A DNA stretch of 50,785 bases from Mizuhopecten yessoensis (Eukaryota). Made by a program: the position numbers and the translations under genes. This document shows positions 1 through 50,304 of this stretch, piece after piece (within the stretch, counting starts at the first letter, position 1; every line of letters starts with the position of its first letter). The stretch is taken from NCBI RefSeq assembly GCF_002113885.1, contig NW_018408896.1, positions 2,935,215 to 2,985,999 of the forward strand, in the 5' to 3' direction. The notes below the pieces were generated by a model. The model ran no database searches and was not told where the DNA came from. It saw only the letters and a program-made list of their open reading frames with translations.

Positions 1-797
1 TCCAAGTCTTTAGAATCTTTCCTTCCTTGACAAGTCTTCTAGCGAAGAATGAGAGTTTGCTTCGGTACTGGGTTAGGTCCTCGTTCACCGAAATGTGTTT
101 AAATTTACTGGTGGCACGAAATCCGGAGCTTGATTTGAGGAGTTTGAATTTCGCTTCGGTCGATCGTAGTCTGGCGATAATAATTCGAGGCTTTCCTGAA
201 GTCGGACGTCCAACACGGTGAGATCTTTCAAGATCTTCTGGTATGAGATCTACCGATGATTCCCTTGCAGCCTGGAGGAGCAGGTCTGTAGTGACCTCAT
301 CTTTGGATTCCGGAAATCCGGAGAAACGGACCAGGGGTCTTCGACCATATTGCTCCAGATCGTCGAGTTGAAGGCGAAGTACATCATTTTCAGCTTCGAG
401 CTTGGACACTCGATCGACCAGAGGGACAATCTGACGCTCTACAGCAGTGTTAATGTCCTCCAATAGCAGGCCCCTGACGGCCTTGGCTATCCTATCTACA
501 TCAGATTCGGATATCGACATAGAACCAGAAGCCGGAGGATAACCAGTAAACTGGGAGGGTTGTTGGAAGAACATATGCTGGAAAGGTAGGCTGGCTGGCT
601 GGGATTGAACGTATGGTCCCTGAGGGACGCTGGGTTGAGTAGGTGAGTCAGACATGGTACCGGTATTATAGGGTGTCGAGGTATGCATATATGAGTACTC
701 AGTAACACCAGGAGAATAATCTCTGAGTTTTTTATTTTCAAATGGCGAAGGAGTGGACGAAGAAGAAAGCGGACGTTTAGACGCAGGGGTGGACATA
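1..797 (-). CDS. Partial non-LTR (LINE) retrotransposon ORF1p-like protein (coiled-coil + RRM-like, L1 Transposase_22-type). ATG at 797-795; open to the window edge, so the element continues beyond position 1.
   Basis: Hand translation of the minus strand gives MSTPASKRPLSSS...VPLVDRVSKLEAENDVLRLQLDDLEQYGRRPLVRFSGFPESKDE...HRVGRPTSGKPRIIIARLRSTEAKFKLLKS...GKILKTW with no stop. The pattern (heptad coiled coil, then 'E-x-Y/R-S/G-RR-N/P-L-R-I/F-x-G-x-PE', then 'HR.G.....PR.IIvk') matches L1 ORF1p. Local GC is higher than the flanks. The ORF track misses it because it has no stop inside the window. Confidence 0.5.
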
Positions 798-11151: not shown

Positions 11152-11259
11152 TTGTTTGAGCTTGTTCTCTCTTCGCCAGACTTTGACAGTACAGTCATGT
11201 GCTCCAGTAAATACAAAATGATCTGAAGTTGTGACACAGGTGACAGCAGCACTGTGAAT
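11152..11259 (-). CDS. TEP1: TEP1-like WD40 exon: [36 protein letters not shown] (last exon resolved; donor gtaagt follows)
   Basis: 36 codons between ttacag and gtaagt. '[11 protein letters not shown]' is a WD40 strand-C/D motif. Confidence 0.6.
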
Positions 11260-14200
11260 CTGTAAAATAGAAATCCAAGGTTAACAAAAAGTCTAGCACT
11301 TAAATTATACAGAATCGCATGTCAGATTGACATTCTATTGAAATATGAAATAATCGGAAAAATCTTATAACAATACACTTTAGAATACTGTGTTGAAAAC
11401 TAAGATTCTCCGCTCAAGCCATTTTCTTGTTTGGGTGATGAATTGATAGAAATCCACATTTTACTACTGGTAATGATCTTGAAGAATTTTTGGAGACACT
11501 TGAAGACAAATGGCATTGAAAATTAAAAAACCTTCCTCAGTATTAGGCTACTCATTCTGTTGAAGTCAGACTTATTTTCATATTCTTGGTTATACTGTTA
11601 TGTTGTGATATTACAGACAGATGTTACTGTGGCTTGGTTAAATATTTGGGCTTAACTTCCTACGTTAAGCTATTCAGATGTACATCAAAAGAACATGTCA
11701 TGTGACGTTTGATACCGTGAAATATCTACCTTTGTTTCTGTGTGGTTCTCCATTTGTCTGTTGATGGTAGTGATCTGGCCAGTGGAGGTGACAGCGTAAC
11801 TATCCCTGGAGTAGGCCGTCAGGTCCAGTACCCTCACCGGTACCTGTCTGTGTGGGGGAACCTTTGAGGTCGGGGGGATATAGATGCTTTCATCAAAGCT
11901 CAACTTCTGACCAAGCTGAAACATAAAAATACACAATGGATTTCACGGGTGTTTATGTAGGTGAATGTAAAACCCCACACATTAAAGTGGGTAAATCATT
12001 TTTACGTGCATTGCGTTAACATCGGGTTAAAAGTTTGACAGTACTACGAAATCAGGACGAAACGTTGCCAGTGTAACTGGAATATGAGACTGTGTGGGTA
12101 TATACGTAGCTCACCTTGTTTATAGTGCCTTTACAGATGTAGCCGTTCGCTGTAGCCACATGGAAGGTGGGCGTGGCTTTCCCCAACATGAACTTAATCC
12201 CCAGTATCCAATCCGATTTTCCAAATTCAAAGCTGTAAAAATAGCGAAAATCAAATTAAAACATACCATATGATTTTTTATTCAGTACAGTGTAAGTTTG
12301 TTGCTTGGTACAGCTAACATTCCAGATTTTTTAATCACCTAAGAGACATAAACTTTTCCCGGAGTGACTGCCATATTGTTCCCATTGATATTTTATGATG
12401 GCTGTTGATTTATTTAATGCAGGGGTTATTAATTAGCCTCTGATTAACTCTACCGAGAGACGGTAGAACCTGTCTAATCCAGACACCATCACAGCCAACA
12501 ATTTTGCTTGGAATAGACAGGTTTTCAAATGCACATGTTAAATTCACATAGAAATGTATACAATTGGACCTTAACTCATTCACCCCTGAAATTTCCTAAC
12601 ACACTATTCCAACCTTTGGTTTGAAGGAGTTCAAATGTGTCTTCAGGGTGAATGAGTTAAAAGAGTTGAAGGTCTGATTTACAAGTGTTCCTGTATAAAT
12701 ACTATTACTCAGGGTTGGATTCATATTAAGTACAACTAATTCCACGTGAGATCAATACGATAACATATATATTGGACATCAGACATTTTCACTTACGATA
12801 ACATATATATTGGACATCAGACATTTTCACCTTTCATCTTAAAAGTTCTCTCATATATTTTTTTCTTATCCGGGTAAAGATTAAGACCACTTTTATCTTG
12901 GTTTTCATATATAGATCATGAAGTTTTGAAAATTTTCCGAAAGTATAAATTTTAAACCAGATAAAGCCAATAGTTTCCAATTACCTATTGGAAAGTGGAG
13001 TCTGCTGCTCAGTGTTCCAGACAGTTAGCTTGCCACACCATTCTCCAGACAGGAAAATATGGCCAGATTTGGAGGTCATCTCGGAGGAGGTGGCTAAGGC
13101 AGTGACCGGGGACATGGTACTGAACACCTTCTTCTTATGACACACAGGCACACTGTTGAGAGAAAATATATATACATTTAACTGTGACACACAGGCACAC
13201 TGTTGAGAGAAAATATATATATACATTTAACCATGACACACAGGCACACTGTTGAGAGAAAATATATATAATACATTTAACCGTGAAACACAGGCACACT
13301 GTTGAGAGAAAATATATATAATACATTTAACCGTGAAACACAGGCACACTGTTGAGAGAAAATATATATATACATTTAACCGTAACACACAGGCACACTG
13401 TTGAGAGAATATGTATAATGTTAATTAATTTAGGGCCAAAGATGGATAAACAGGTATGAGGAAGGAGACTGCAGGGTCTACTTGACTCATTATAAATGTC
13501 CATGATTATATAAGCACACTTACCTGTGACCAGATTGGGACTTTTTGTAGATGTTCCAAATGATGATCTGGCCATCGTCTCCTCCAGTCACAAAAGCATT
13601 GGGTGCCAGGAAGCAGGCTGCATTTACAGATTTCTTGTGAGCCTAAACAAAAAAAGATTTTAAACTAAAGTACACTGCCTCCATTCTAATAAGTTGTTAA
13701 AATACAACCTGGCATTATCTTATATTATACACGACATACACAAAACGCTACAGCACGATCCAGGACTCTGTTGTATAACACACAGAGAACGTTATGTATG
13801 ACAACATGGTAGGCATGTATTTTGTAAGATGTAACTGTTAAAATTAAACCCAGGTCACAGATCTTACCTGTAATGACATGGCACATATTGGTCGCCCGAC
13901 TTCAGTAGGTTTATACCAAATCTTCAACGTTCCGTCCCTGAAAAACAATAATTTCACTTTATAAATTACAAATGCTTTGTTAGCTAATTTGTTTACATTT
14001 GGAAAAAGGAACATCTTCACCAAAAAATCTCTTCAAACAATGTGTATCACAATTATTGATTACATAAATATTTTCAGTAACATACATTAAATGATAAAGG
14101 TTCTACAGTGTCACTTATACCGACCTACTACCAGTCAGCAGGAGTGATTTGTCTGGCGATGTCTCCACAAACGTGACAGGTGCATTATGAACATCGGTGG

Positions 14201-17200
14201 CTGTCTCTGTTGACAATTGTGGTTCCCAGAGTCGGATGGCTTTGTCCAGGGATGTTGTACACAGGTGGCCATCTTTGTTGGCAGCTACACTGACCACTCG
14301 GTCAGAGTGACCGGTTAGATTGGCCATCTCATTGGCCTGGAAAATATAAAGCCAACCAATAAAAATCCAAAATATATTATGGTAAGAATGAAGTCTGTCT
14401 AAATAGGAAAAGATACACAGGATTATTTCACATAAACAGTTGCATGACACACATAATGAAACTGTTTGATTTATAAATGTTAAACAAAATGGAGAATTAT
14501 AGATATTTAATGGCTGTTTGTCAATGCCATCATATAGACAAATACTTATACATATTTATTTTTTATTCTAATCAAGTCATTTTGGTATGATTATTCTTTT
14601 AAAATCATGAAACTATGTTAATTTTGAGCCACAAAACAGGGGAACTGACAAAAGTCAGGTCTTATGCCCCAAGAGGCCTGTGAGAGCGACTCGTTTTGGA
14701 CAGAACATGTTTATGGTAATATGAAGAGGCTTTGATCAGGCATACCTGTAGAGGTTTCCACAGTACAGCGGTGCCGTCATCACCACATGTGGCTACAATA
14801 ACCTCCTCCAGATTCACTGCAGGTTTGTGAGTTTTTTGGGTCTTTGCTTCCAATTCGTCAGCCTCTACTACAGCACTCCAACTCATTTCATCTGAATAAT
14901 ACAAGACAGGGGAATAAGTCTTCATATTAAAAACAGGGGCCTCTTTGTTTATGCGGAACAACCGGTTTGTTTGTTTTTAAATGTAACATTTTCGGGTATA
15001 AATCCTGGCGGACCTGCGAGTGTTAATGTTAATGTAGGCCTTGTAAGGCTTTGTCAAGGCTCGCCTGAAAGCAGCATCAGATTACTAGGTCCGACCTTAT
15101 TTCATAAACGAACAACTCTGGTCTAACCAGTTCAACCGTTTAGATCACGATAAACGAATGCAGCCCTGGTTAATTCTAATCTGTTTTGAACATTTATGAA
15201 ATGATGCAATAATAACAAACATTATATTTCAGATACTTAAAAATCCATCAATTTGATCGCCAATCATTAACTGACATTCCATTCACATACAGTGATGAAG
15301 GAGTTGCAGAGAATCTGATTACGTGTCGGAGAGAATCTGATTACGTGTCGGAGAGAATCTGATTACGTGTCAGTATTAAAGAATTATTCAAGACAATAAA
15401 GAAACAACAGACCTTGAACATTGACTCTGTCGACTTCAGACACTCTGACGTAGAGGTCACAGGCGTGTGCTGCCCTCTGGTGGGAGTGTAGAGTGGTGAT
15501 CTCGACGCCCTTGTGTGACCACACTTTGACTGATCCGTCATTACAGCTGGACACAATACAGCCGTACTGAAACAAAGAAAACAGAAATAGTACTGGATAA
15601 GGAGCACAGTACAATCAGGAAATGGCAACGACCTTTTAGGCTGGGGTAAACAAAAATAGTACTGGATAAGGAGCACATTACAATCAGGAAATGGCAACGA
15701 TCTTTTAGGCTGGGGTAAACAAAAATAGTACTGGATAAGGAGCACAGTACAATCAGGAAATGGCAACGACCTTTTAGGCTGGGGTAAACAAAAAAGATGC
15801 CTTAATTTTAAGATTGATTGCTGAAAGTTACTTTGATTTCTTTGTTTGAAATTATGGATAGTAAAAGCTAAATATATTTACAAGTTAAGCTGATTAAAAG
15901 TTAAGGATAGTTATAAGTTAAGGTAAGTTATAAGTTAAGGATAGTTATAAGTTAAGGATAGTTATAAGTTAAGGTTGGTTATAAGTTAAGGATAGTTATA
16001 AGTCAAGGTTTGCTACAAGTTAAGGATATTCATAAGTTAACTCATTCAACCCTGAGGACATATTTGATTCAATTGATTTCAATTCATAGGTTGAAATAGT
16101 TATTTATGAAATTTCAAGGTTGAATGAGTTAAGAATAGGTAAAAGGAAGAATAGCTATAAGTTTAGGAAAGATACAAGTTAAGTATAGCTGGAAGAGGAC
16201 CCTTATTTTGTACTTAGTAACATATCTGTCTCTCACCTTGTAGGCTACCGATGATATTGAGGACATGTGACCAGTAATCTTCTGTTTCTCCTCCCCGGTC
16301 TTAACATCCCAGACTTTAAGAGTGAAGTCATTGGAGGCTGTCACCTACAAACATACAGAATAATTAACACCAGGTAGCATAAATAACAGCTGTGGGCTCT
16401 ATAAACAGGTAGCATAAATAACACCTGTGGGCTCCATTAACAGGTAGCATAAATAACACCTGTGGGCTCTATTAACCATTTCACGCACTGAAAACCATAA
16501 TGGACTCATCCAGATCAATGTATGGTAGAGTTTACTAAGTTGTATAGGGCTGAAAGAATTAACAGGTAACATAAATATGGAATGTGTACATAAGTTAGTA
16601 GATTTTACAATAGTGAACATGGTTTTGTTTTGTTGTTGTTTCGTTTTTTTAAAAACTTAAACCATGTATAAAACATCATGTAACTGTGCTCTGAAGACGG
16701 CCTCCTTTTCAATGAAACATGTCAGCACGTAGGATGTAAATCAAACATTACATTTTGTACCGGATTCAGTGGTGTTGTTGCTCATCGTTTCTATTTTCAT
16801 TTGCCATGTATAAAACAATACTGTAAATCCTGACTAACTGTGTGCAGTGTCCATTTACACAAATATACATTAACTCATTGATTATTAAGGTAACATGTCA
16901 CAGGTAGCCCAAAATTAAGCATATATCCTTTATAACTTTAACACCAATCACAGAATTACTGTGTAGTATTTATTCTTTAACGTAAACCACATATATAACG
17001 TATAAGGAAATAAATACTTTGGTGATATTGCTAATTCATAGTTTACTGTACATACCAGAAAATCTCCAAACCAGCTACAGCCGGTCACCCAGTCTTTGTG
17101 GCAGTCATGTAAAACTTGTATTGGGGTAGAGCTGGAGTCCAAGATACTCATCCTCAGCTCCCAAATCTTCACCGACTGAGGATAAAACAGGTGTAGGGAT

Positions 17201-20200
17201 TTATAACCCATTGATGACACTTCAGTTTGCACAGATTGAGACTGGGCTTTGAGGTTCATTTGGAAGTTCTCTTAATAGAGTTGTCTTTAACGTGATTTCT
17301 AAATAGAGGCAGTTCCTTAGGTAGATACCTAGTAATTACCACATCCAAAATATCACAATTCACAGTATAAAATAAAATGAAATGATACTGAAACCAAATA
17401 GTAGCTCTCAGTCTCAGTAAGGCAATTTAAAGTATTCAAACTATACTTTATGTTTTTGCACTCTTACTGAGGTAACTCTACAATGATTTTACAATATTCA
17501 CTTAAACATACATATTAAATGACTGATCAATTAGAAGTAATATATTTGTTAACTCACCATGTCTCGACTTGCTGTTGCCAGTCTTTTCTCATTGGGGCTG
17601 AACACACAGGCAGTCACTGCTCCGGTGTGTCCAAGCAGACCAGCTACCGACTTCAACTCCTTAGAGCTGTTCATTTACAAATATTTCATATCAACATGGA
17701 TTTTATTGCTTCAAAGTTTTGCATCATATAATTTTAAGTTTGTAAGTTTATTATTTGAAAGTCTCTATAGCCTAAAATCTCTTCACAACATAGGTGACCG
17801 TTGTTTGTGTTGAAACAATCTCCGTTTCAAATAGAAAAAAGAAAAAGAAATTAAAATCAATTACCCACGACCCTTAACATTTGACACATATGTCCTATAT
17901 TACCATACCAGGTACTAATGTTTTACACTGATCTATACCGTACCTCTTGCCAGATCTACCCCAGACAGCAGGAAACACACAACATTGACAGTCCTCACTG
18001 CCGGTAGCGATGTAGTTTTTAGCTGCTGACACACACAGCACTGGTTGTGTGTGAGTCGCCATGGAGCTCACCAGTTTACCATCATGTGCATTTACCACCT
18101 GCAAAACAATCAGCAATATTATACATTTTCTGCTCTCAAAACAGCTGTTACTTTAAAATGTTGAAGTCTATGGTAAAACATTAAACACGAGTACTTCCTT
18201 TTGTGTTGTTAAACCATTGTTTTCAATACAAACTTTCATGGTTTGTGGGGTATTGTGGATGAGTTATTCATTGTACAAATGGTTTAACTGCAGTCACAAA
18301 AATCAGGAATGTAAAGACATTGCTATTGCTGAACTTGAAGTGAAGTTTTATGCTAGAGAGTGCATCCACATGCTCATCATAAAACTGTTTATAACACTGT
18401 GTCCTTGTCAATTATCAAATCAAACCGGAAAAACTTCCCACTGGCAGTAATATCTATGAAAGACATTTTGTGCTGAGCATTATTTTGGATCAATATGCTC
18501 GTCCAATAGATGTGTTCTGTCATATTAATGATGGAGATATATATAAAACGGTCTTCCTTTCTCTGGTTGAACATGACTGCGGGTTGAGTATACGCATGAA
18601 AAGCCTGTGCTAAGTTAAATGGATATGACAACTTGGACAAATCCTGTATCAATTTCCCCTCCTTTCTACAGCCTAGGACATCTATACTTATCACAGATAA
18701 TACCTTGTTATATCGAGACTTACCTTGCTTGTATTGTCGTCTGCTCCAGTGAGGAGGTAGGCACCATCAGGGCTATAACACAATCCCCTTACTCTGGACT
18801 TGTGAAGACGACTGCCCCACAGCTCAAATCCTGTAATGTATAATTATAGTCTCCATCATTGTGTGCTCTCAAGCTCTACTACCTTGTTGCATGCAAAGCT
18901 AAATCAGTTTTTTGAAATACATAAAAAAAACCTACAGTTACCATTTATTATAATAAATTAAAGTTATGCATTTCTCTGTATTTTTTCTCAAAATTCTTGT
19001 AAATCAAAGTTGAAATCACAGCAGTTTTGCACACGAAGAATCAACTTTCTCACAAAACATGCCAAATCAAAATCAAACTGGGAGAATGTTTCACATTATC
19101 ATGTTATCTTACCTGAGAGCACATCAAACACCTTTACTGTTCCCGAGTGGTAACCAAGGGCAACAACAGTACAATCAGGGTCAAATCTCACGGCCACAAT
19201 GGGTTCTCCTCCCTCCTCACCAATCTTGAGTGTGGGTAGACCCAAGTGTCCTGACCACACCTATCAACGATTACAATTCTATTTATTAGAATGAGTTAGC
19301 AAGTATAATCTACAAGCTTCATTGAGTTGGATCTCTCCCACATTAGGAAATACAAATAAAGGTGTGATGTTATGTCACACTGTGATACGATCAAAAATAT
19401 CATTGCTTCTTACTGTGTATAAACTGAGAAGTTTCCTTATATACCTAGCATGTGTAGTGTAAATAAAAATAATAGCACTATGTTATTTTAAATACTAGAT
19501 TGACGTTTTATTTCCACAGTTCAGTTAAGTTATTGTGAAAACATATTTGTCTTGTACAATGTATTATCTGTTTGACCTCTGACCAGTATAAAATATTTTT
19601 CTGAAACAAATGTGTTAGAACAAAAGTTGTTACCTTTAATGCATCTTAGCTTTGTATGCTTTGTATGCCCCACCTTCACCTATGACCTACCTTGACCTTG
19701 TGGTCATCACTAACGGTGATGAGTTCCTTCCCAGTGGGCGAGTATATGAGCTTGTTGATTGGGGCTGAGTGTCCCTGGATACTACCAACCTATCAAACAC
19801 AACAAGTACATATTTGTTAATATATAATATGGTAGGTGGTAATTTTGAACATGGAACAAGCTTAATTGTTGCAGTTACTTTAATGTAACTGTACACAGTA
19901 ATATTATCAAACATTAAATTTTCACCCTTAAATCTTCAAAAGTATATTTTTCCTCCCAACTGTGGTTTTATTTATTGTAAAGACCTGTGAATTAAAGATT
20001 GTTTGACCTTCTGAATTTGTTACAAAGAATAAGTTCATAATTATGAGACTTTATGACAATATTGGACCAACTTTCCAACAGGTAACTCTAACACTTGCTG
20101 AAATCTTATGTTATTTGCCTTACATGTATTAGGATTATTGACATACCTGATTGCCACTCTGTGCTGCCCAGATCTTCACGTCACCGTCGAGAGAAGCTGA

Positions 20201-26200: not shown

Positions 26201-29200
26201 TTTTCACATTTACTAAGAGACACGGAAATTTGTACAATTATGATATGAATATGCTAGTAGGTGCTGTAGTATCAGCTCACCTGTTCAAACACCCCAAACA
26301 CCCGGAGTTCCTCACAAGCTAGTTTCAGGAACAAAGGCATAGAAGCTTCTTTCTTGGACAGCAACAGCTTCAGCTAAAAACAGAGAGTAACAGCAATGAA
26401 ATATAACTGTAACCAGAAAGGTCGCAAACCTCTGGTGCAATAATTCTTTCTGTTGATTATTTTTTTTGAGTGTGAGAATTTTGTCATCATACAGTGATAA
26501 TTTTGTCTATTGGTTTGATAGTAATCTAGTTTGTCCATTTATAAGTATGTCAACATAGACATACCTGGTTGTTAAAGGGTGCCTCATCAAGAGCCTTCCT
26601 GTGGGTGGCCAGTGTTGTCCTGACAACGTCAGCTTTGTCCCACATGTCCAAACCACCGACGCTGACCTCTTTACCTTTGTGACGTTGTAGAGACTTGTGA
26701 CACTTTCCAGCATCCAGCACAGTCAGCACGAATGTAACATTCTGAAATATAACACATTATGTAATACATCTGGAATCCATTAGGTAAACATGTAACGATA
26801 AATGCTCCATGTTACACCATTCAGCGATGTTGAATACATTTGTAAAGTCTTGTTAATACTGGTATGTGCAGTAAAACTTTGTCCTATCCTGTGCAGCAAA
26901 ACTTTGACATTATAAAGAGGTTTGACAATACATGTATATCAATGGTGACTTTAAAAAACAATGTAGAAGGAAAAGAGGACCCTGAAATAGTTTGGCAGTG
27001 AGATGGAAAGTGAAGTAAGTGGCATTATACATAGGTTTTACTGTATATAAACAAGTGGCATTTTATCAAGGTTTTCACTAATTAAAGAATTAATTCAACA
27101 GACAACAGGTAGCTTGTAAACATGAGTGTATGGGGCAAAGGGCTAAAGATCCTTTGCGGTACTGCATACTAATTGAAATTTTCCCATCATAACTGTTACC
27201 AATTCCTCATTATTGAGACCTGTTCATCGCCTCTGAATGGCTATCATGTTTACTCTACTCTAATTAATTTGATTATTTGTAAACATTGCCAAAGAAGTTA
27301 GATAACCATCCCTCACTCTGGAACCTCTATATACCTTAGGTACAGGCGATGGCAGCCACTCCAGGTTGTCAGGTTGGTAGGCACTTTCCATGATGTCTAT
27401 ACCATCGATAAACACCAGCAGGGGTGAGTCACACATGGTACCAGCCTCCTCCAACATTTCACCAAACACCTGACTCAGGTTCCTGGAACATACATGTACT
27501 ATTTTAATGGATGTGCTTCTTACATTGTCCAAAAAAATATCAAATTCCATTCAAATATTTACAATTTTATTTTAAAGTCAAAACAACAATGTAATTTCCA
27601 TCTAACTTCAAGCTTAGAATAGAGAGTGTGACTGAACTGAAAGTCTGGTCGGTACAGGTTTTCAGCATATTCAGAGTTCACTCTATACAGAATGGTTATG
27701 TACAATGAAACCTCTCTAAACTGACCACCACAGTGTATCCATAGATCTTTGATACCTCATCAGCTAGCAAGACCATTATCAACCTGGTGTTGTTTCAAAA
27801 TATGTCAGTGGAATGACACCAAAGGGACCAGTAATTCTGCATGGATTGTTTTATTTCTAGTTAAGCTGTTAAGAAGAGCTTCTGTTATATGCATCGTTGG
27901 GATTAGTCAGGTTCCACTGTACATTTTAGCTAGAGTCACCATTTCCGTTGTTAGAGTAGGCTTACTTGAAATCCTCAGGGACCTCTTTGACCAGTCCAAA
28001 TCTTCGTTTGACTTCGTGAGCGAGACGGCGGAGGGTAGCCAGGATGTTGGTAGAACCCGGAGCAGCTCCTACTACATGGGTCAGTACGGACAGGGCACTG
28101 TCACACATGTCCGACTCCACGTAACCGTGCACTAGGGATGCCTAGCAACAAAGAAAATGGATTGTTATGTCGCTTGAAACACAAAAAACTATGGTGAATC
28201 ATTACAGTTTAGTATTTAGTGTACCATGTTTTTTCTTACAGTAATTTATTTATTTGCAAAAACTTGAATTTGCAAATGAAAAAGAACTGGTATAAAGTTG
28301 TTTTTTTATTTGTCTGTGTAAATGTTTGTTAGATATCTGAAGTCTTAATTAAAACATCAGGTGTGTTTATATTACTAGACTCGAGCTAAAATATAGAATA
28401 ATTCATAAGAGAATAGTTAATGAAAACTATTGATTTTTGTTTGTAGCATCACAAGTCACTATCTTGCTTGCAATTTGTTTACCAGTATATAATAAAACAG
28501 AAATTTTCTTCAGACAAAATGCTTGTTATGTCAACTTCATATTATATTCAAGGTAAAGAAACCTTAACAACAGATATGTATGAAACGTATATATGACCTC
28601 ATTTCAGAATCCTCTGGGAGTATTCTACTAACATTGTGTAATACATGTTACGAGGAATAGCCCTGGCTGTAAAATTAAATTTGCCTAAGAAATATTTGCA
28701 AATTATCTTTGATATTTTCAACTCAGTTAATGGAATCCCTACAAAAATAATCATATAAATGGTTACCATGACAGCTGATTTCCCACTTCCAGGTTTGCCA
28801 ACCAATCCCATAATTCCAGAGGGCACAAATTGTAACTGTTTGAGGCCTTCTTTGATCATTGTTTTACGCCCCACAAAGTTGTCTTGGTGCCGTTCCAACA
28901 TGGCCTGGTGCTGTTTAGATGTATGTGTATTCTCATCCAACACCTCTGCCTGTAACACACAAAATCAGTTTGCCTTTTTCATTTCTTAACCATTCTCAGA
29001 CCTAAGTCTGTTAAACACACATATTGTCAAACTTTGATTAATATTTTTAAATTAGATGGTAGATGCATGTTTGATAAATCAGTCTGTCATTTAATTTAAG
29101 GTGAAGTAAAAAAAAAATCAGCTCTCTGAGAAGATGTTTAATTTGTTTTCACCATTTTTTATGTCTTTATGTCAAAAACAGACATTTGTTTAAAAGCTTT

Positions 29201-32200
29201 TTTTGTTTTCATTCAGGTTTCAACCTTGACTTCTTTCCAGATTTAAATGTTCATTATGAGTTACTTTACCTCCTTGATGTAGAGTTTGTTCACTGAGTTC
29301 CAGAGGTTGTTAAGGACTCTAGCACCAAACAGTTCTAGGCCTGATACAAGGGGCTTGTCTTCTGCCACCCCTCCCCAGTGACATGGATACCCCTCATACA
29401 CTTCCAAGCCACTGTTTCGTATCCTTGTTTTCAGGTCGGCCATTTTGTTTTTACACTCAGCGTTCTCAGCAACAAAGTCAGATGTGAATTCTGCAGGAAT
29501 GTCCCTACAAAAGATGTAGAAAAGAGATTTTTTTCTTTTTCTTGATACCATATTCATGTCATTGTAAATGAACTTTTTTTAAAACATCTATTTATAAGGC
29601 TGTTAATCTGTGAATGCCCAGTAACAGAATAGAATATATGATTAGGTGCACCTTAATCAATATTTACAAAATGTTTCAATTCATGAGATCATGTTTACCA
29701 ATTAACTTAACTGATAAACAGTTTATACAAGATACCAAAACATATCGACAGTATTTATTTTAAGTAAAATGGCAGTGTGGTACTATTCCTACTATTTCTG
29801 TTGTATTATTCAAATATAATCAGAAGATACTAAAAACAGTGGTGTAGAGGTAATCAAACATACACCATAGAGAAGGTATATTAACACACTTACGTTTCAA
29901 ACTGGCTGTCCCTGAGAAAGAAGAAGGCGGACTGTTGAGCCTCCTGTGGCTGACTCAGGGCTCCGGCGTACATTTCCATCTCTGTGACAGACAGCCCAGG
30001 TTTGCTGTCTCTGACCCAGTCATACTCGGCTGTATCTGGGACGACATACTTCTCCGGTATCCAGCCGTAACGCTCTCCCAGGATTCCAAGGAACAGGTTA
30101 CACTGTTTTACCTCGGAGAGACACAGCTCCATGGTCCTGGAGATATCAAAACAAAAATTGTTAAAATAACCACCTTTTTTTCCATCCAACTCTTTAATTG
30201 AAAATTCTTGTTGTTTATTGAAAACTCTGTACTGGTTTAACTCATTTACCCCTACATTTTTAAAATCCTTCATTTTTAAAATGGACTTGCTCAGTCTTTG
30301 ATTTGGTAAGGTTCAAATGTGACTTTAGGGATGAATAAGTTAAAGGTGTTCAATGTTAATTGAGATTTTTTTTGATCTACAAAAAGGTTCTGTTTATAAA
30401 TGATGTTAGAGAAAATAGGATGGAAATATAAAATGTGTCCAGTACAACAGTGTAAAACAATATTGACTTAAGAAATACTGTCAGTTGTATCAAAAAACAA
30501 GATCTACTGTATCATAAATGTGAGGTTCTCACAATAAAAATTGTACCAAATATACACTGGTATTAAACATATACCAGATTCAAATGTTAAGTTTATAAAA
30601 CACTGATCTACCTGTTTGTCTTTGTGTCTTTCTCCGTCACTCCCCATCGGAGATCCACTTCATATACATTAATGAAGTGTTTCTTGGCAAGGGCACGTAA
30701 CTCTGGGAATATGTTCCTGGTGAGAATGTCTCTCTCGCCATGCATGTCGCGGAATGTTGAGGAGATGAACACTCGGATGGTTTTCCAGCTGTAAAGATAT
30801 ATTATGTTTGTTTAAGAGCCACAAACAGCCTCAGATAAACACAGTTGAAGTTTGTCTTATATCTTAGAGCATAGATCAATGAAATGAATTTAATTTTAAT
30901 TGATGATGTTGTACCCGAGTTCTGTCTTTCTTTACCTCGGGGAGTTAGAGACCACGGCCAGTGGTTTGGCAGGATTGACCAATTTGGGTTTGTTTCCCCT
31001 GTCTGCTGATGTGGTTGGCATGGGTCGAAGGTCAAATGCTTCGTCTATCTTCTCTACATGTCTCAGCTGTCCTCCTTCACCTCTCTCTGCTATAAACCTG
31101 TAACACATCAAATGGTGGATCAGAAAATAGCAATATACCCTGGTACCCTCTCTAATTATTATACACCTGTAACACATCAAATGGTGGATCAGAAAATAGC
31201 AATATACTCGCTACCCTCTCTAATTACTATAAACCTGCAACACATCAAATGGTGGATCAGAAAATATTCAAATACCCTCTTTAATAACTATGAACCTGGT
31301 GATACTGAAGATTGATTAGGTTCAGTTTATCTGATTTAATGTTCTGTTTACAGCTAAGGTCATTTAAGGTGCATCTCCATTTGTGTAAGCATGTTTGGCT
31401 GGTATATGTTGGTGTATTTGCTACCTTGTGTTAGCACCGATCTGATGCCAACTTTAAGAGTGCTACTGCACTGAAATATTATACTGAAGGAACTCTGGAC
31501 AATATTCCTCCAATTCACATTGTACTGAAGATAAGTAAACCAGCAGTTTTGTGAGAAAAGAACACTTTCAACACATTGTTATATTATGTCTTACCCGAGT
31601 ATCTGGTCGCTGTAACCAGATATGTAGTGGTATGTAGCCTTACCTGAGTATCTGTTGTTGTAACCAGATATGTAGTGTTATGTAGTCCTACTTGAGTATC
31701 TGTTGTTGTAACCAGATATGTAATGTTATGTAGCCTTACCCGAGTATCTGGTCGCTGTAACCAGATATGTAGTGGTATGTAGCCTTACTTGAGTATCTGT
31801 TGTTGTAACCAGATATGTAATGTTATGTAGCCTTACCCGAGTATCTGGTCGCTGTAACCAGATATGTAGTGGTATGTAGCCTTACTTGAGTATCTGTTGT
31901 TGTAACCAGATATGTAATGTTATGTAGCCTTACCCGAGTATCTGGTCGCTGTAACCAGATATGTAGTGGTATGTAGCCTTACTTGAGTATCTGTTGTTGT
32001 AACCAGATATGTAATGTTATGTAGCCTTACCCGAGTATCTGGTCGCTGTAACCAGATATGTAGTGGTATGTAGCCTTACTTGAGTATCTGTTGTTGTAAC
32101 CAGATATGTAATGTTATGTAGCCTTACCTGAGTATCTGGTCACTGTAACCAGCTATGTAGTGTTATGTAGTCTTACCTGAGTATCTGTTGCTGTAACCAG

Positions 32201-35200
32201 CTATGTAGTGTTATGTAGCCTTACCTGAGTATCTAGTTGCTGTAACCAGATATGTAGTGTTATGTAGCCTTACCCGAGTATCTAGTTGCTGTAACCAGCT
32301 ATGTAGTGTTATGTAGGCTTACCTGAGTATCTGTTGCTGTAACCAGATATGTAGTGTTATGCAGCCTTACCTGAGTATCTGTTGATGTAACCAGATATGT
32401 AATGTTATGTAGCCTTACCTGAGTATCTGGTCACTGTAACCAGATATGTAGTGTTATGTAGCCTTACCTGAGTATCTGGTCGCTGTAACCAGATATTTAG
32501 TGTTATGTAGCCTTACCCGAGTATCTACTCGCTGTAACCAGATATGTAGTGTTATGTAGTCTTACCTGAGTATCTGTTGATGTAACCAGATATGTAGTGT
32601 TATGTAGCCTTACCTGAGTATCAGGCCCCACTTGTATAAAACATCTCAACTCTTGAGATTTCCTCAAGCCTAAAATTTCACATAGACAATGCATTACTTG
32701 AGATTTTCCTCAACTTTGAGATGTTTTATACAAGTGGCCACTGGTCACTGTAACCAGAAATGTAATGTTATGCAGCCTTATCCGAGTATCTAGTTGCTGT
32801 AACCAGTTATGTAGTGTTATGTAGCCTTACCTGAGTATCTGTTGCTGTAACCAGATCTGTAGTGTTATGTAGCCTTACCTGAGTATCTGTTGCTGTAACC
32901 AGATATGTAGTGTTATGTAGCCTTACCTGAGCATCTGGTCGCTGTAACCAGATATGTAGTGTTATGTAGCCTTACCTAAGTATCTGGTCGCTGTAACCAG
33001 ATATGTAGTGTTATGTAGTCTTACCTGAGTATCTAGTTGATGTAACCAGATATGTAATGTTATGTAGCCTTACCTGAGTATCTGGTCGCTGTAACCAGAT
33101 ATGTAAATGTCATTGTCGTGCTCGGGAGTGATACTTTCTGAGAACCTACAAACCAGACAAAGAAAAAAATTAAATTCTTTTTTGAACATTTTGGAACTTT
33201 ACAAAATTGCTGTTTCTGTCAGTCAATATTATGTTTTATTACAAAAACTTAATTTAGACCGAATGAAAATATTTACCTAAAATGAAGCTTTATACTCTTT
33301 TAAAATATAAAATTGTTTCATAAAAAAACCACAAGTTAGGATATCAGACTAGTTTCCCCACCATTTCTGATTTACTTACCCATTATTCACGATTTAAAAC
33401 CAACAATTCCTTATTTGATTACCCACAATTCCTTATTACTTTACTCCACATTTCATGATTAACTTACCCACAATTCCTTATTAATTTACTCCACATTTCA
33501 TGATTAACTTACCCACAATTTCTGCCGGCAAATGAAATGTTGACATACAGCAGGTTGGGGTTTACAATTTCTCTGTATTTCTTCAAAAATGTTGAGAGAT
33601 ATTGCTGCTGGGTAGGTACATTATCCCCACCGCTCAGGAAGATCAAGTTGTCAACCTGTACAACACAAAGATGTCAGCGTGTCAATAGTACAAGTATAGG
33701 TAAACGAGATGTTAGGTCGCCAGTGTAAATAGAAAGATGCCAGGTTGTCAATGTGAACACAAATATGTCAAGTTTTCAATGTATGGTGAACACAAAGACG
33801 GCAGATTGTCAACAGAAACACAAAAATGTCATTTTATCATAGATACACAAAAATATCATGTTGTCGACAAAAACACAAAAATATCATGTTGTCAAGATAT
33901 GGTGTCGTGTTGTCAGCCTAGCTAGACCAAGAAAGGTCAGGTTTCAAGTTGTCACTCAGAAACACCAAAATACTATACTAAGAAGTTTTAAGTATCAGGA
34001 ATTACAATTAAACAAAATACTGAACATGATTATTATTTCTGTGTAAACTGTCCCTGTGGGTGTCCCCTTAGGGTATTTTATGTTACCTACCTGAATTCTG
34101 TCCCTCAGAGCATCGGACAATATCTTGTGTGGCAACATGAAAGGCAGAGACTCCGAATTCTTCACCTCAGCATTTAGCAGCTGTAATTAAAACAGAGAAA
34201 AGTTATATTAATGATGTACAGAAATTCTCTTTCAAAGATATTTACAATTTAGTAGGTCTCACATAATCAAAATTAAAATTCGAAGTTTTTGTTTAGGATT
34301 TTAAGTATCTCACAAACACTAACAGTTAAACTCTTCTGCTGGTGGCATTGAAGATAGGTTGTAAGGATTTAACTATCTTAAGATAATATTTAGACAGATT
34401 TATACATGATATCTTCGTTTTTGCTCTTTTGTCATATAAAACCTCACAGAAAAGGTGTTGGAAAGTTAGTAATGATAACAAGCAAAAGAAACACAGTACG
34501 TGAGCCTTACAGTCGATGGGTCGAGGACTACATCCATGTTCTCCAGAATGGTGCCCGACTTGAGCTGGACGTTGAAATAAGTGTTGGGTGTAAAAGCTAC
34601 CAGATCACACTCCTCACACGAATATTTGCACATCAAGCCGAGCAGGACTGCAACCTCCTTCATCTGCAACCAATTTAAATTTTAAGGTAAAAAGGTCTAA
34701 TAACAGTTAAATATTATAAAACAAGCAATTCGGATTGATATGTCTCGCCTGTGCACCGCTTTGACCATCAATAAACATATCGGTGAAATAAAATCAATTT
34801 AGACACCATTTGAAATGAAACTAACTTAAATGCAAAAACTTAATGTTGATGGAGATGCTGACATAGTCAATGGACCATGAAAGGTAGGCCATATCCAGCA
34901 TTTGATACATAGATTGAGATGTACTACCTAAGATGCATCTATGGCCCAAGTTTGGTTGGTCTAGCACCTATACTTTCAGTGAAACTAACTTAAAAACTTA
35001 ATGTTGATGCCTCCTCCGCCGCCAAAGGAAAACCTTAGTCTTGCTTCCACTTCTTCGTGGCGGCGAGACAAAAAGCAGGCTAGCTAACAGCAATTATCTA
35101 CTGTATACACAAGTCAAAATGTCACATATCAATACATTAAAATACTTAAAAAATAGTACCTGTCTAGGTTTGCCCAATCCCCTGGCTGCAGTACAATTGA

Positions 35201-37926
35201 CCTCCATGCTGGGTCCAATGTCACACAGGACAATAGTTCGTCCCCTAATTGGCTGAACATTGTAGGTTGTGGCGATCTTCACTGATTTATCAAGGGCTTT
35301 CTTGTACCTTGCAATCAGTTGCTTGTCAAATTGCGTTTCCCTGTAATGTAGAAAGTGGAGATAAAGTAAGGAACTAATAAGACACCATCACATTTCCTTT
35401 AGAAATTACCACTTTAGCCATCTAACTTAATTTGTGCATTTCTGAGTGATTAAATTCATGAGTTGTCTTCGAAATAAACTCTAAAATAAACATGTCAGTT
35501 TTTACTCACATCCTGAAAAGAAATTTAAGAGAACATGAAATATTTTTTCTGGTATAACTGGAAACACGTGACATCAGGGTGTCAAAACAATATTCAGTAC
35601 ACTGTACCTCCAAAACAATACCCAGTACACTGTACCTCCAAAACAATACTCAGTACACTGTACCTCCAAAACAATATCCAGTACACTGTACCTCCAAAAC
35701 AATACTCGGTACACTGTACCTTCAAAACAATACCCAGTACACTGTACCTCCAAAACAATACTCAGTACACTGTACCTCGAAAACAGTACTCAGTACACTG
35801 TACCTCCAAAAAAAAAATACTTGGTACAATATAATAATGAACACCCTAAGACTCTTTGTTATTGATAAGAAGTGGTTTAAAGACTTTAACAAATTAAGAT
35901 TCCTGTGACCTAGAAAGCGGGTCAAGGTCATCCACTTTATAACACTTCTTATCCCTTCATCAAATCATGCTACTTGCCGAATATCGTGACTAGGCCTTTT
36001 GGTTATCCATGAGCAGTCATTTATTACAGTTTGATGCCAGATGAAGGCAGGTGAGCAAATCCTTATCAATATTTCCCTTGAATCTTATAAAGTCTGGTTG
36101 AAGTATACATACTGTGGTGCATTGTTTTTATTTTTTTTCTTATCCAGCCACCACATTTCAGGGTTGGTCTTCTTGGCCCCACGACCACTACCTCTGGCCC
36201 CACGACTGCTACCTCTGGTCCCACGACCGCTACCCCTTCCACGTCCTTGTGTTTCAGAAGGGTCTAGTTGATTGGTTGCAGCCTCTGCCGCCTCCACTAT
36301 ATCAGATTCTGGTAAAACAAGGTCATACAAGATCATGGTTCCATTTTTTTTTAACAACCATCGATCAATGTGAAATTTAATAAAAAAAAAATCACCAAAA
36401 CAAGGATTGGTTTTGTATCAGGATACAAAACAAGAAATAATTTCGTAACAAGATAAAGAAGTGTTTTAAATATATCTATGTTTTCATTCAGACAATAATA
36501 AAAAGTTGAAAACAACTGATTAAGAAATGTATGAGGATAAGGCTACAGGCTTTGAGTCTGAGAGTCTATTTAGGTTACCAAACTGTTTGACTTGAATCAT
36601 TCACCCCTGAAATTTCATAATGAACTATTCCAAGCTTTGAATTGGAAGAGTTCAAATGTATCTCCAGGGGTAAATGAGATAATAAAACTTCAAACAAAAC
36701 AAAAAATTAAATGGTTATTTTGTTCACACTTCAAATGATTCTTTTCATGGCAATTGATTTTTTTAATATTTAAAAATGTTTTTTGTTTTATGTTTAATTT
36801 ATAAATTTCACCATCTTGGAAAAGATAAAAAAACACCATGTTGCTAACAGTGTCTGATATTATTGCCTTTCAGCCCTTTCAACAATCTTGAGTTCCAATA
36901 CTTACGACTTTTCTCATAGTCCTTTTCTAAATTTCCTAGAACTTCATAGGCAGAAAAGAACCTGAATGGAAACTGCTTGCTGTTCACAACTTGTTTCTAC
37001 AAACAAAATTGCAATCAGAATAAGAAATTTTATGAAATACTTAATGTTTATTCAACAATCAATTTACTATTTTCACGTTGAAATAATGCGTGGCGAACCA
37101 CAACACTTACCATTGATAATTCCATATTCTGTAAAACAGCCCACTCCCTTCTCAATGTATTTTACAATGATATATCCCTATTCAGTAATAGACCCATATT
37201 CTGGTATCAGATGATTTAAACCGTGACTGACCCATATTCAGTAATGAGCCCAGCCCTTATATTAGATGATTTTACTGGTGAATGACCCATATTCAGTAAT
37301 AAGACCAACCCCTTTGTAGCAGATTTTTCCAGTGATAAGTCCATGTTCAGTAATGAACTTGCCCTTCTTATCAAAAGGACTAATTAAAAGTACATGAGCA
37401 GAGAGTGAATTAAAGTAACATCTATATGTTAAATTTATTCACCACATTTAAGAACAATTGATTATCAATTATCACTCTTTTTTATAGTTGTTGCTATTAT
37501 ATTTAGTAGTACTACTTGCTGTATATATGTTATAAATATAAACTATAGCAAAATATAAAAAAATAAATTATTTATTCAATGCCTTCGCTAGGAGTCGAAC
37601 CCGGGCCTTCTGGCTTACTAGTCTTACACTCTACAGAATGTGCTAAAGAGAAATTCTCCCTAGCCGAGTCGGTAGGAAGCGGCTAGTATTTTACCAGGGT
37701 GATAAAACCGTGACATAAAGCAAATATTTCCTATTTAATAGTAAGTGATTTACAGTTATATTCTCAACCATCTGTCCGCTTTCTGATATGAAACAGAAAT
37801 AAGGAAATATACAAACCTCGTTAGTCAATCTGTGAAGGATGTTTGTGTGGTGTTTTTCAGATATCCCAGCCTTGATCACGTTCCGCAGGTTCCTCAGCAT
37901 GGCCATAAAGGGGAGCTTATTATGGT
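11152..37926 (-). CDS. TEP1: Locus span of a large multi-exon gene encoding a TEP1-like protein (TROVE + DUF4062 + NACHT NTPase + many WD40 repeats). Span only: more than 35 exons, with the 5' end (above 37926) and 3' end (below 11152) unresolved.
   Basis: Minus-strand ORF fragments in colinear order. TROVE/Ro60-like exons at 37.9, 36.9, 35.2, 34.6, 34.1 and 33.6 kb. DUF4062 ([16 protein letters not shown]...[16 protein letters not shown]) at 30.7/30.0 kb. NACHT P-loop GKPGSGKS at 28.8 kb and Walker [10 protein letters not shown] at 27.4 kb. At least 20 WD40-type exons run from 22.1 down to 11.2 kb (GH...WD, 'DxxVKVW' motifs). The last resolved exon, 11152-11259, ends at a gtaagt donor, so the gene continues 3'. 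Confidence 0.7.
12571..12660. mobile_element. Foldback MITE, family copy 2 (TIR TTAACTCATTCACCCCTGAA)
   Basis: ttaactcattcacccctgaa...cttcagggtgaatgagttaa; perfect ~20-bp TIRs. In a TEP1-like intron. Confidence 0.65.
12746..12830. repeat. 2 x 42-bp tandem duplication (gataacatatatattggacatcagacattttcac)
   Basis: Direct reading. Confidence 0.8.
13139..13410. repeat. Intronic minisatellite, ~60-bp unit x ~5 (acacaggcacactgttgagagaaaatatatatacatttaaccgtga)
   Basis: Direct reading. Generates the overlapping minus 'ORFs' 13135-13326 and part of 12981-13226. Confidence 0.8.
15296..15370. repeat. 3 x 20-bp tandem repeat (gagaatctgattacgtgtcg)
   Basis: Direct reading. Confidence 0.8.
15571..15792. 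repeat. 3 x ~66-bp tandem repeat (aaacaaaaatagtactggataaggagcacagtacaatcaggaaatggcaacgaccttttaggctggggta)
   Basis: Direct reading. Explains the repetitive 141-aa ORF 15341-15766. Confidence 0.8.
15893..16032. repeat. ~17-bp minisatellite (gttataagttaaggata)n, ~8 copies
   Basis: Direct reading. Confidence 0.75.
16037..16132. mobile_element. Foldback MITE, family copy 3
   Basis: ttaactcattcaaccctgag...caaggttgaatgagttaag. Intronic. Confidence 0.6.
16237..16344 (-). CDS. TEP1: TEP1-like WD40 exon: [36 protein letters not shown]
   Basis: 36 codons, acceptor ttgtag (16346/45), donor gtgaga. '[10 protein letters not shown]' then 'GH'. Confidence 0.6.
16362..16470. repeat. 3 x ~39-bp tandem repeat (acaggtagcataaataacacctgtgggctctattaac)
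   Basis: Direct reading. Confidence 0.8.
17944..18098 (-). CDS. TEP1: TEP1-like WD40 exon: [51 protein letters not shown](R)
   Basis: Acceptor ttttgcag, donor gtacgg. WD40-like 'ATGSED'. Confidence 0.45.
20147..20266 (-). CDS. TEP1: TEP1-like WD40 exon: [40 protein letters not shown]
   Basis: 40 codons exactly, acceptor ccacag, donor gtatgt. Canonical WD40 (GH-x-SV-...-SAS-DG-VKIW). Confidence 0.65.
21152..21301 (-). CDS. TEP1: TEP1-like WD40 exon: (R)[49 protein letters not shown]
   Basis: WD40 pattern GH...ASASWDxTVKVWD. Acceptor ttccag, donor gtgaga. Confidence 0.55.
24200..24330. repeat. 3 x ~46-bp tandem repeat (ggtaaaaataacctgaaaataattaacaatatcaacaaatatgct)
   Basis: Direct reading. 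Confidence 0.8.
25175..25290. repeat. AT microsatellite / (catatatatatgaattc)n, low complexity
   Basis: Direct reading. Confidence 0.8.
27335..27482 (-). CDS. TEP1: TEP1-like exon, NACHT Walker [50 protein letters not shown]
   Basis: Walker B hhhhDGhD (LLVFIDGID). Acceptor tgttccag, donor gtatat. Phase does not join directly to the 27965-28141 exon as drawn, so a micro-exon or an alternative junction is unresolved. Confidence 0.5.
27965..28141 (-). CDS. TEP1: TEP1-like exon (NACHT): [59 protein letters not shown]
   Basis: Only frame 0 is open. Acceptor ttgctag, donor gtaagc. Confidence 0.5.
28767..28949 (-). CDS. TEP1: TEP1-like exon, NACHT P-loop: [61 protein letters not shown]
   Basis: Walker A GKPGSGKS. 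Acceptor tgttacag (28951/50), donor gtaacc (28766/65); 183 nt, phase 0. Confidence 0.65.
29270..29504 (-). CDS. TEP1: TEP1-like exon (pre-NACHT): (T)[78 protein letters not shown]
   Basis: Acceptor ttttgtag, donor gtaaag; phase-consistent (AC|G gives Thr). Confidence 0.55.
29894..30136 (-). CDS. TEP1: TEP1-like exon (DUF4062 continuation): (R)[80 protein letters not shown]
   Basis: Acceptor ctccag, donor gtaagt; phase-consistent with the previous exon (AG|G gives Arg). Confidence 0.6.
30236..30343. mobile_element. Foldback MITE, family copy 4 (more diverged)
   Basis: tttaactcatttaccccta...ctttagggatgaataagttaaa. In the intron just upstream of the DUF4062 exon. Confidence 0.45.
30612..30788 (-). 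CDS. TEP1: TEP1-like exon (DUF4062): [58 protein letters not shown]
   Basis: Acceptor tttacag at 30790/89 and donor gtagat at 30611/10, checked base by base. '[16 protein letters not shown]' is the DUF4062 signature found N-terminal to the NACHT domain in TEP1/NWD1. Confidence 0.6.
31096..31300. repeat. 3 x ~62-bp tandem repeat (cctgtaacacatcaaatggtggatcagaaaatagcaatataccct...)
   Basis: Direct reading. Creates the repetitive plus ORF 31058-31315. Confidence 0.8.
31589..33106. repeat. Satellite array, 49-bp monomer (ccttacctgagtatctggtcgctgtaaccagatatgtagtgttatgtag), ~29 copies, with a 98-bp higher-order unit in its left third; interrupted at 32623-32740
   Basis: Direct reading. At 31700-32100 the alternating variants ('cccgagtatctggtcgc...gtggtatg' / 'cttgagtatctgttgttg...taatgttatg') repeat as exact ~98-bp dimers. 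Confidence 0.85.
32623..32740. mobile_element. Palindromic MITE-like insertion (~118 bp) inside one satellite monomer; TIR ~GGCC(C)CACTTGTATAAAACATCTCAA
   Basis: The monomer 'gagtatc|tggtc' is split by aggccccacttgtataaaacatctcaactcttgagatttcctcaagcc...cttgagattttcctcaactttgagatgttttatacaagtggccac. It has ~24-bp inverted termini plus internal sub-repeats. Confidence 0.55.
33403..33530. repeat. 2 x ~50-bp tandem duplication (ttacccacaattccttatta.tttactccacatttcatgattaac)
   Basis: Direct reading. Confidence 0.75.
33513..33655 (-). CDS. TEP1: TEP1-like exon (TROVE C-terminal part): [48 protein letters not shown]
   Basis: Acceptor tgtacag, donor gtaagt. Aligns with Ro60 'ADVFIVFTDNETFAGG...[20 protein letters not shown]'. 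Confidence 0.5.
34093..34182 (-). CDS. TEP1: TEP1-like exon (TROVE): [30 protein letters not shown]
   Basis: Flanked by ttacag / gtaggt. 'SLPFMLPHK' corresponds to Ro60 'SLPMIWAQK'. Coordinates approximate. Confidence 0.45.
34511..34663 (-). CDS. TEP1: TEP1-like exon (TROVE vWA-like): [51 protein letters not shown]
   Basis: Acceptor ttgcag, donor gtaagg, 153 nt in phase 0. Aligns with Ro60 '[24 protein letters not shown]...'. Confidence 0.55.
35160..35282 (-). CDS. TEP1: TEP1-like exon (TROVE vWA-like, MIDAS motif): [41 protein letters not shown]
   Basis: Codon-by-codon check. A 'DxSxS'-type metal site (CDIGPSM) aligns with Ro60 'LLAVDVSASM'. Donor cag|gtac at 35160; an in-frame stop upstream at 35316-18 forces the acceptor to ~35283. 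Confidence 0.55.
35575..35815. repeat. 30-bp minisatellite x ~8 (tccaaaacaatactcagtacactgtacc)
   Basis: Direct reading. Explains the repetitive plus ORFs 35535-35908. Confidence 0.85.
36591..36682. mobile_element. Foldback MITE, family copy 5 (left TIR degraded: tgaatcattcacccctgaa)
   Basis: ...attcacccctgaaatttcataatgaactattccaagctttgaattggaagagttcaaatgtatctccaggggtaaatgag. Confidence 0.5.
36900..36995 (-). CDS. TEP1: TEP1-like exon (TROVE): ...[30 protein letters not shown]
   Basis: Matches the Ro60 'RIHPFHILIALETYK' region. Boundaries not resolved. Confidence 0.35.
37145..37370. repeat. ~3 diverged copies of a ~60-bp tandem repeat (tgacccatattcagtaatgagcccagccc...)
   Basis: Direct reading. 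Confidence 0.6.
37590..37665 (-). other. tRNA-derived sequence relic (B-box GGTTCGACTCC on minus strand); possible SINE head or tRNA pseudogene, not a foldable canonical tRNA
   Basis: Plus strand 'gagtcgaacccgggcc' is the reverse complement of GGCCCGGGTTCGACTC (T-arm consensus GGTTCGANTCC). I could not build a complete cloverleaf with an acceptor stem by hand. Confidence 0.25.
37817..37926 (-). CDS. TEP1: TEP1-like exon (TROVE domain): ...[33 protein letters not shown]
   Basis: Resembles Ro60/TROVE 'LTALLRNLGKMTA...'. Acceptor ctccag, donor gtttgt. Boundaries approximate. Confidence 0.45.
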
Positions 37927-50207: not shown

Positions 50208-50304
50208 CTAGTTGGTACTTGTCAAAATTGGGGAACTTGGTGATCATGACTTTCCTGAGAGCTGCCGGTATAGCACCTTGTCTGATAGTCTTGTCATGAA
50301 AGGC
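50208..50304 (-). CDS. Putative upstream exon of the same RGG-box gene: AFHDKTIRQGAIPAALRKVMITKFPNFDKYQL(A)
   Basis: Acceptor tttgcag (50306/05), donor gtatgt (50207/06). It ends with 1 nt (G) that joins 'CA' of the 43100 exon to give Ala, so the reading frame is continuous across the DIRS-containing interval. Confidence 0.35.

Follow-up and report, generated by a model that had tools for sequence, protein, structure and literature searches.

Gene structure of the locus

The window, by which we mean the whole 50,785-nucleotide stretch analysed here, is AT-rich eukaryotic DNA (about 36% GC) whose minus strand shows short open segments. On that strand it carries what we regard, with very little doubt, as the intact, intron-rich TEP1 orthologue of the Yesso scallop Mizuhopecten yessoensis. 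The scallop copy looks single-copy, and it is an ordinary gene, already named correctly in RefSeq, with nothing new about it. Searching 1.84 billion representative proteins with exon 15 (window 29896-30135, minus strand) gave one match at 100% identity, a protein of 2,701 aa, which is the RefSeq entry XP_021378535.1, telomerase protein component 1-like of Mizuhopecten yessoensis. When the concatenated DUF4062/NACHT and TROVE exons were used in a protein search, fragments of "telomerase protein component 1(-like)" made up the named matches (Branchiostoma, Saccoglossus, sharks and others), and many bacterial DUF4062-NACHT proteins were returned as well. TEP1-like proteins compared with the window by tblastn formed a collinear minus-strand series that extends from 50316 to 25837 and exposed TROVE exons at 41964-42122, 42360-42497 and 50206-50316, beyond the upper limit of the first-pass annotation, which had placed the gene at 11152-37926.

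The gene model was built independently of RefSeq with an exon-chain finder based on dynamic programming, which combined codon log-odds trained on the homology segments with generic donor and acceptor weight matrices and with open-frame and phase constraints. The model comprises 50 exons and 49 introns, all GT-AG, with intron lengths of 147-7,107 nt (median 405); it starts at 50304 in the window and reaches its stop codon at 8217-8219. Its coding sequence of 7,053 nt translates into 2,350 aa with no internal stops. Such an in-frame chain of 50 canonical GT-AG exons, together with the Pfam scores given below, is far beyond chance. The splice junctions, which were computed from the sequence, agree with RefSeq, and the model corresponds to residues 393-2701 of XP_021378535.1 with 0 mismatches, except for one 41-aa segment. 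The N-terminal 392 aa of the RefSeq protein, which comprise a stretch rich in Ser and Leu and the initial ~100 aa of TROVE, are encoded past the window end. Two kinds of candidate exon placed by an initial run of the finder were dropped. Exons antisense in a GC-rich retrotransposon and 15-nt pseudo-exons in a donor-copy minisatellite were discarded because exons 1 and 2, and exons 12 and 13, respectively, connect directly and in phase; RefSeq agrees in both cases.

These results refine the first-pass annotation. Its two limits proved to be exact exon boundaries, with exon 5 beginning at 37926 and exon 49 ending at 11152, and its count of at least 20 WD40 exons was borne out by 21 WD40-region exons among the 45 exons between them. 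A length of at least 27 kb was correct as a minimum, but the gene reaches past both limits inside the window and covers at least 42 kb of it. The 5' part was rightly placed outside in so far as 392 aa lie beyond the window, but four further 5' exons lie within it. The final WD40 exons had been thought to fall outside the resolved region; in fact the last coding exon (8217-8357), with its stop codon, is inside the window.

Exons and domain architecture

The encoded domains follow in the order TROVE, vWA-like (DUF5920), TIR-like DUF4062/TeTIR, an almost certain NACHT, winged helix, APAF1-like helical region and WD40 propellers (about 950 aa). This is the TEP1 order of the literature (PMC7916137; bioRxiv 10.64898/2026.09.21.753143), and the domain description and the RNA-binding and vault role of TEP1 used here are those of PMC7916137. 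All exons lie on the minus strand, and amino acid positions refer to the model unless stated otherwise.

In the window-encoded part, TROVE (PF05731) scored 248.4 bits (cut-off 23) over aa 11-385, profile positions 131-442 of 442; the score on the full RefSeq protein was 357 bits. The first exon in the window (50208..50304, aa 1-33, RefSeq aa 393-425) encodes the TROVE sequence AFHDKTIRQGAIPAALRKVMITKFPNFDKYQL and was supported by tblastn, the model and RefSeq identity. Exon 2 (42832..43100, aa 33-122; model and RefSeq) is a low-complexity TROVE insert with a K-rich run, an RGG box and an acidic Ser run. TROVE continues through exons 3 (42361..42494, aa 123-167), 4 (41963..42120, aa 167-220), 5 (37817..37926, aa 220-256) and 6 (36906..36996, aa 257-287), each backed by tblastn, the model and RefSeq. 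Exon 7 (36113..36308, aa 287-352; model and RefSeq) is an RG-rich insert in TROVE and contains a coding 21-nt repeat. Exon 8 (35160..35340, aa 352-412; motif, model and Pfam) holds the end of TROVE and the start of the vWA-like domain, which directly follows TROVE, with the motif CDIGPSM. The MIDAS-like motif is degenerate, reading DxGxS and not DxSxS. DUF5920 (PF19334) scored 41.1 bits (cut-off 27) over aa 416-602. It is encoded by exons 9 (34511..34663, aa 413-463), 10 (34091..34180, aa 464-493) and 11 (33513..33655, aa 494-541), all three supported by the model, Pfam and RefSeq, by exon 12 (33074..33145, aa 541-565; model) and by exon 13 (30936..31097, aa 565-619; tblastn, model and RefSeq), which also carries the linker behind it.

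The DUF4062 profile (PF13271) was matched at 59.1 bits (cut-off 24.7) over aa 624-717. Exon 14 (30612..30788, aa 619-678; motif, Pfam and alignment to PDB 11gz_A) begins the TIR-like DUF4062/TeTIR domain and contains the RWG loop. Exon 15 (29894..30136, aa 678-759; motif, 11gz_A alignment and protein search) contributes ELCL with the catalytic Cys, GERYGW with its Arg and TEMEM with the catalytic Glu, and exon 16 (29270..29504, aa 759-837; model and 11gz_A alignment) the C-terminal part of TeTIR. Directly behind TeTIR, the NACHT domain starts in exon 17 (28767..28949, aa 838-898; motif, model and Pfam) with the Walker A motif GKPGSGKS, continues through exon 18 (27966..28141, aa 899-957; tblastn, model and Pfam) and exon 19 (27335..27482, aa 957-1006; motif, model and Pfam), which bears Walker B, and ends in exon 20 (26565..26741, aa 1007-1065; tblastn, model and Pfam). 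The NACHT profile (PF05729) scored 21.8 bits (E = 1.8e-4) over aa 886-1050, below the gathering cut-off of 26.7, and AAA_16 and AAA_22 gave weak Pfam matches as well. Homologues aligned to the NACHT exons carry a precomputed PF05729 assignment. With Walker A and B both present, the P-loop region is almost certainly a NACHT domain that does not reach the curated threshold.

Exon 21 (26281..26373, aa 1066-1096; tblastn, model and RefSeq) encodes a post-NACHT helical region. An NWD1-type winged helix (HTH_NWD1, 36.8 bits, cut-off 27, aa 1105-1222) spans exon 22 (25899..26031, aa 1097-1141; tblastn, model and Pfam), exon 23 (25316..25493, aa 1141-1200) and part of exon 24 (24803..24912, aa 1200-1237), which also starts the APAF1-type helical domain (APAF1_C, 37.7 bits, cut-off 22.8, aa 1231-1367). 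That domain extends over exons 25 (24124..24212, aa 1237-1266), 26 (23783..23897, aa 1267-1305) and 27 (23117..23222, aa 1305-1340) and ends in exon 28 (22577..22745, aa 1340-1396). Exons 23 to 28 were all supported by the model, Pfam and RefSeq.

WD40 matches totalled 359 bits in 14 stretches (cut-off 27) from aa 1397 onwards. The first WD40 exon is exon 29 (22121..22216, aa 1397-1428), followed by exons 30 (21603..21727), 31 (21152..21301), 32 (20769..20874), 33 (20147..20266), 34 (19691..19789) and 35 (19113..19260), all supported by the model, Pfam and RefSeq. The second TEP1 propeller (Beta-prop_TEP1_2nd, PF25047; 270.5 bits, cut-off 89, best stretch aa 1702-1914) starts in exon 36 (18724..18830, WD40; model and Pfam). 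Further WD40 exons, again with support from the model, Pfam and RefSeq, are exons 37 (17944..18098), 38 (17558..17666), 39 (17056..17175), 40 (16237..16344), 41 (15413..15566), 42 (14746..14891), 43 (14125..14336), 44 (13868..13937) and 45 (13524..13642). The model and RefSeq agree on exon 46 (12985..13152) in the WD40 region and on exons 47 (12115..12232) and 48 (11730..11915) in the C-terminal propeller region. The C-terminal propeller profile (Beta-prop_TEP1_C, PF25048; 157.7 bits, cut-off 32, aa 2270-2348) begins in exon 49 (11152..11259, aa 2269-2304; model and Pfam) and ends in exon 50, the last coding exon (8217..8357, aa 2305-2350 and the stop; model, Pfam and RefSeq), whose translation closes with ...VRVVCGDQLGNIHFLTWHQ*.

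The individual motifs cited in the first-pass annotation were all found on the minus strand: CDIGPSM, the TROVE/vWA motif with its degenerate MIDAS, at 35205-35225; the DUF4062 signature with its first peptide at 30728-30775 and LGERYGW at 30061-30081; and the NACHT peptides GKPGSGKS at 28776-28799 and LLVFIDGID at 27395-27421. The domain series that it had read from the exon order held in the Pfam search of the spliced exon translation for TROVE, the vWA-like domain, DUF4062 and WD40, which exceeded their cut-offs, and for NACHT only below the cut-off, with the Walker motifs in place. It had also expected TEP1 N-terminal repeats in the outlying 5' part. Such repeats are described for mammalian TEP1 (PMC7916137), but within the first 291 aa of XP_021378535.1 the Pfam family for them (TEP1_N) was not matched at E <= 0.01. 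The repeats are not needed for TEP1 orthology.

Introns, repeats and neighbouring sequence

The intron between exons 1 and 2 (43101-50207) holds a 6.8-kb GC-rich element (55-59% GC) at 43213-50001 on the plus strand, antisense to TEP1. Its inverted terminal repeats of 147 nt (43233-43379 and 49818-49964) are 99% complementary, and the left one lies only about 130 nt from the exon 2 acceptor. Three long, intact ORFs encode 854 aa, 728 aa (RVT_1 at 79 bits and a weak RNase H in Pfam) and 1016 aa. In the Pfam search of these ORFs only the reverse transcriptase and the weak RNase H were found, with no tyrosine-recombinase and no gag domain. Because of the inverted terminal repeats and the ORF layout, the element looks like a young DIRS-like retrotransposon.

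The TEP1 introns are rich in minisatellites. At 38364-40916 a 51-bp unit is repeated in 50 copies with 97% matches and takes up the greater part of the 4-kb intron that separates exons 4 and 5; the minus strand of this array is open for 908 codons and is not coding. An intronic array at 31590-33105 has a 49/97-bp unit that copies the terminal ~26 nt of exon 12 together with the donor CAG|GTAAG. The real donor is thereby followed downstream by about 25 nearly identical decoys (31644-33025), the use of which would lead to an immediate in-frame TAA. The array at 13138-13417, in the intron upstream of exon 46, has 5 copies of the acceptor of that exon (decoys at 13200-13398). This array and those at 24197-24330, 31090-31278 and 33399-33522 are smaller and run a few bases into an exon, duplicating an acceptor or donor junction. 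At the window edge, a 72-bp tandem array (50462-50785) reads D*IEVAEIYQ|GTAGGT in each copy, which corresponds to the 3' end and donor of an upstream TEP1 exon outside the window (...SDWIEVAEIYQ in RefSeq), except that a stop codon replaces the Trp codon.

The idea that junction-copying minisatellites are a special feature of TEP1 was rejected after a control comparison in which junctions were not enriched. Extra copies with <=3 mismatches were found for 4/98 junction 24-mers (4%), versus 22% of random intronic and 1% of exon-interior positions. What is copied at the junctions is spill-over from ordinary minisatellites of the introns. A search of the whole window against Rfam at gathering thresholds gave no RNA family, and hence no intronic snoRNA or vault RNA in the window. 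Downstream of the TEP1 stop, a 270-aa open frame (2-811, minus strand) runs off the window start and includes the coiled-coil-like stretch LEAENDVLRLQLDDLEQYGRRPLVRFSGFPE. It had no Pfam match and presumably resembles a retrotransposon ORF1-type protein.

The RGG segment of exon 2

The one segment in which the model departs from RefSeq lies at 42924-43046 (minus strand) within exon 2. It is 123 nt long, in frame and stop-free, has GT..AG ends and encodes GDEDTTTSATRGRGGGRGVGRGRGRGRGRGRGGFSTPEPVP, which resembles the RG-rich exon 7. The model keeps it, whereas RefSeq removes it as an intron, so that 41 aa forming an RGG box (GDEDTTTSATRGRGGGRG...EPVP) are absent from XP_021378535.1, which represents the same gene and is otherwise identical over residues 393-2701. 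We tentatively raise the possibility, on balance an unlikely one, that the segment is an alternatively spliced exitron by which an RGG-type box is added to or removed from a TROVE loop, modulating the RNAs bound. The segment may instead represent a repeat-length polymorphism.

The TIR-like domain and a proposed mechanism

When the N-terminal 1,396 aa were compared with the PDB by phmmer at E <= 0.001, only the TIR-like domain of human TEP1 was matched, and neither Ro60 nor APAF1. The match between the DUF4062 region (aa 619-835) and this entry (11gz_A, human "Telomerase protein component 1") had E = 7e-66. Chain residue 1 of 11gz_A was taken as human residue 894, an offset derived from the chain length of 220 residues and the residue numbers given in the papers. 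In human numbering, F902, S905, R908, R914, R942-W943-G944 (the RWG loop) and R954 are identical in scallop, as are C959 (in ELCL), R976 (in GERYGW) and the catalytic E1008 (in TEMEM). All residues for which a catalytic or substrate-contact role in the human domain has been published are conserved in the scallop protein.

The human domain has been described as a TIR-like NADase whose activity needs E1008 and most of the other listed residues, with residual activity kept in R908A and W943A; activity is also seen inside the vault, and the specific activity increases at higher enzyme concentration (bioRxiv 10.64898/2026.09.21.753143, 10.64898/2026.05.01.722283). In TEP1, of which there are 2-4 copies per vault, RNA is bound by the TROVE/vWA module (PMC7916137). 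By analogy with mammalian TEP1, the scallop protein would reside inside vault particles as a telomerase-associated RNP protein, and its TROVE/vWA head would bind small non-coding RNA such as vault RNA or telomerase RNA. The NACHT-WD40 body might act as a STAND-type switch that controls oligomerisation of the TIR-like domain. Residue conservation suggests that this domain may hydrolyse NAD+, as in mammals.

One intact gene

The introns are crowded with minisatellites, many decoy splice sites are present and one intron harbours a 6.8-kb retrotransposon about 130 nt from an acceptor. All of this could be expected of a TEP1 pseudogene, a copy in decay or without function that only resembles a gene. 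We consider this highly improbable, as these insertions are restricted to introns, the 7,053-nt coding sequence has no stop or frameshift, 49/49 introns are GT-AG, and the catalytic, Walker A and Walker B residues are all conserved. Still less credible, and effectively refuted already, is a pair of adjacent same-strand genes, one Ro60-like (TROVE/vWA) and the next NWD-type (DUF4062-NACHT-WD40), whose single frame would be an artefact of joining: Ro60 and NWD1/NWD2 do occur as separate animal proteins with these respective architectures, but the end of DUF5920 and the linker in exon 13 are continued in phase, over a 147-nt intron, by DUF4062 in exon 14, single homologues collinear with the exons bridge TROVE/DUF5920 and DUF4062 (P0137, P0165, P0176 and P0011) or DUF4062, NACHT and the helical region (P0001-P0003), RefSeq has one 2,701-aa protein, end-to-end alignments are obtained with more than 20 proteins 2,000-2,860 aa in length, and the WD40 part matches TEP1-specific propeller families. 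The separate transcripts for TROVE and NACHT-WD that the first-pass annotation had named as a possible refutation do not fit these results either; the in-frame GT-AG chain, the single RefSeq protein and the collinear homologues place both in one gene, the intact TEP1 orthologue.

Comparison with known systems

The scallop locus is of low value for discovery, since its RefSeq name is right and its architecture is textbook TEP1. The first-pass annotation of it is also an instance of a 45-exon gene pieced together correctly from the letters alone. The locus has modest value as a clean invertebrate example in which the whole TROVE-vWA-TIR-like-NACHT-WD40 chain is conserved outside vertebrates, together with all residues recently found necessary for human TEP1 NADase activity. 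This conservation supports the proposal in the 2026 preprints that hydrolysis of NAD+ is ancestral to TEP1 and the vault.

XP_021378535.1 aligned end to end with 25 proteins of 2,000-2,860 aa. Identity to it was 49% over 1,971 aa for the TEP1-like protein of the clam Mya arenaria, 44% over 2,327 aa for the sea urchin Lytechinus, 44% over 2,297 aa for the crinoid Anneissia and 41% over 2,062 aa for the amphioxus Branchiostoma, and 34% over 2,452 aa and 31% over 2,527 aa for TEP1 of the lungfish (Protopterus) and the lizard (Elgaria), respectively. The TEP1 or TEP1-like protein of the priapulid Priapulus was also collinear, and the whole set showed 30-49% identity over about 2,000 aa and more. 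With human TEP1 the scallop protein shares the domain order TROVE, vWA, TIR-like DUF4062, NACHT (almost certain in scallop), helical region and WD40, as well as the TEP1-specific propeller families. It differs from vertebrate TEP1 in overall identity, which is only about 31-34% (lizard and lungfish), from mammalian TEP1 in that the N-terminal 30-residue repeats were not detected in it by Pfam, and from human TEP1 in the RGG/RG-rich inserts that it carries in TROVE.

The RNA chaperone Ro60 has the TROVE and vWA-like RNA-binding module in common with scallop TEP1 but is without DUF4062, NACHT and WD40, and the scallop MIDAS is degenerate (DIGPS, that is DxGxS). With NWD1/NWD2 and the bacterial DUF4062-NACHT proteins (Swarozyc-type defence NADases), scallop TEP1 shares the core of DUF4062/TeTIR and, almost certainly, NACHT, over which many bacterial matches had about 30-38% identity. 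The HTH_NWD1 domain detected by Pfam is a further likeness to NWD1/NWD2. In contrast to scallop TEP1, NWD1/NWD2 and the bacterial proteins are without the N-terminal TROVE/vWA extension that defines TEP1 (bioRxiv 10.64898/2026.09.21.753143).
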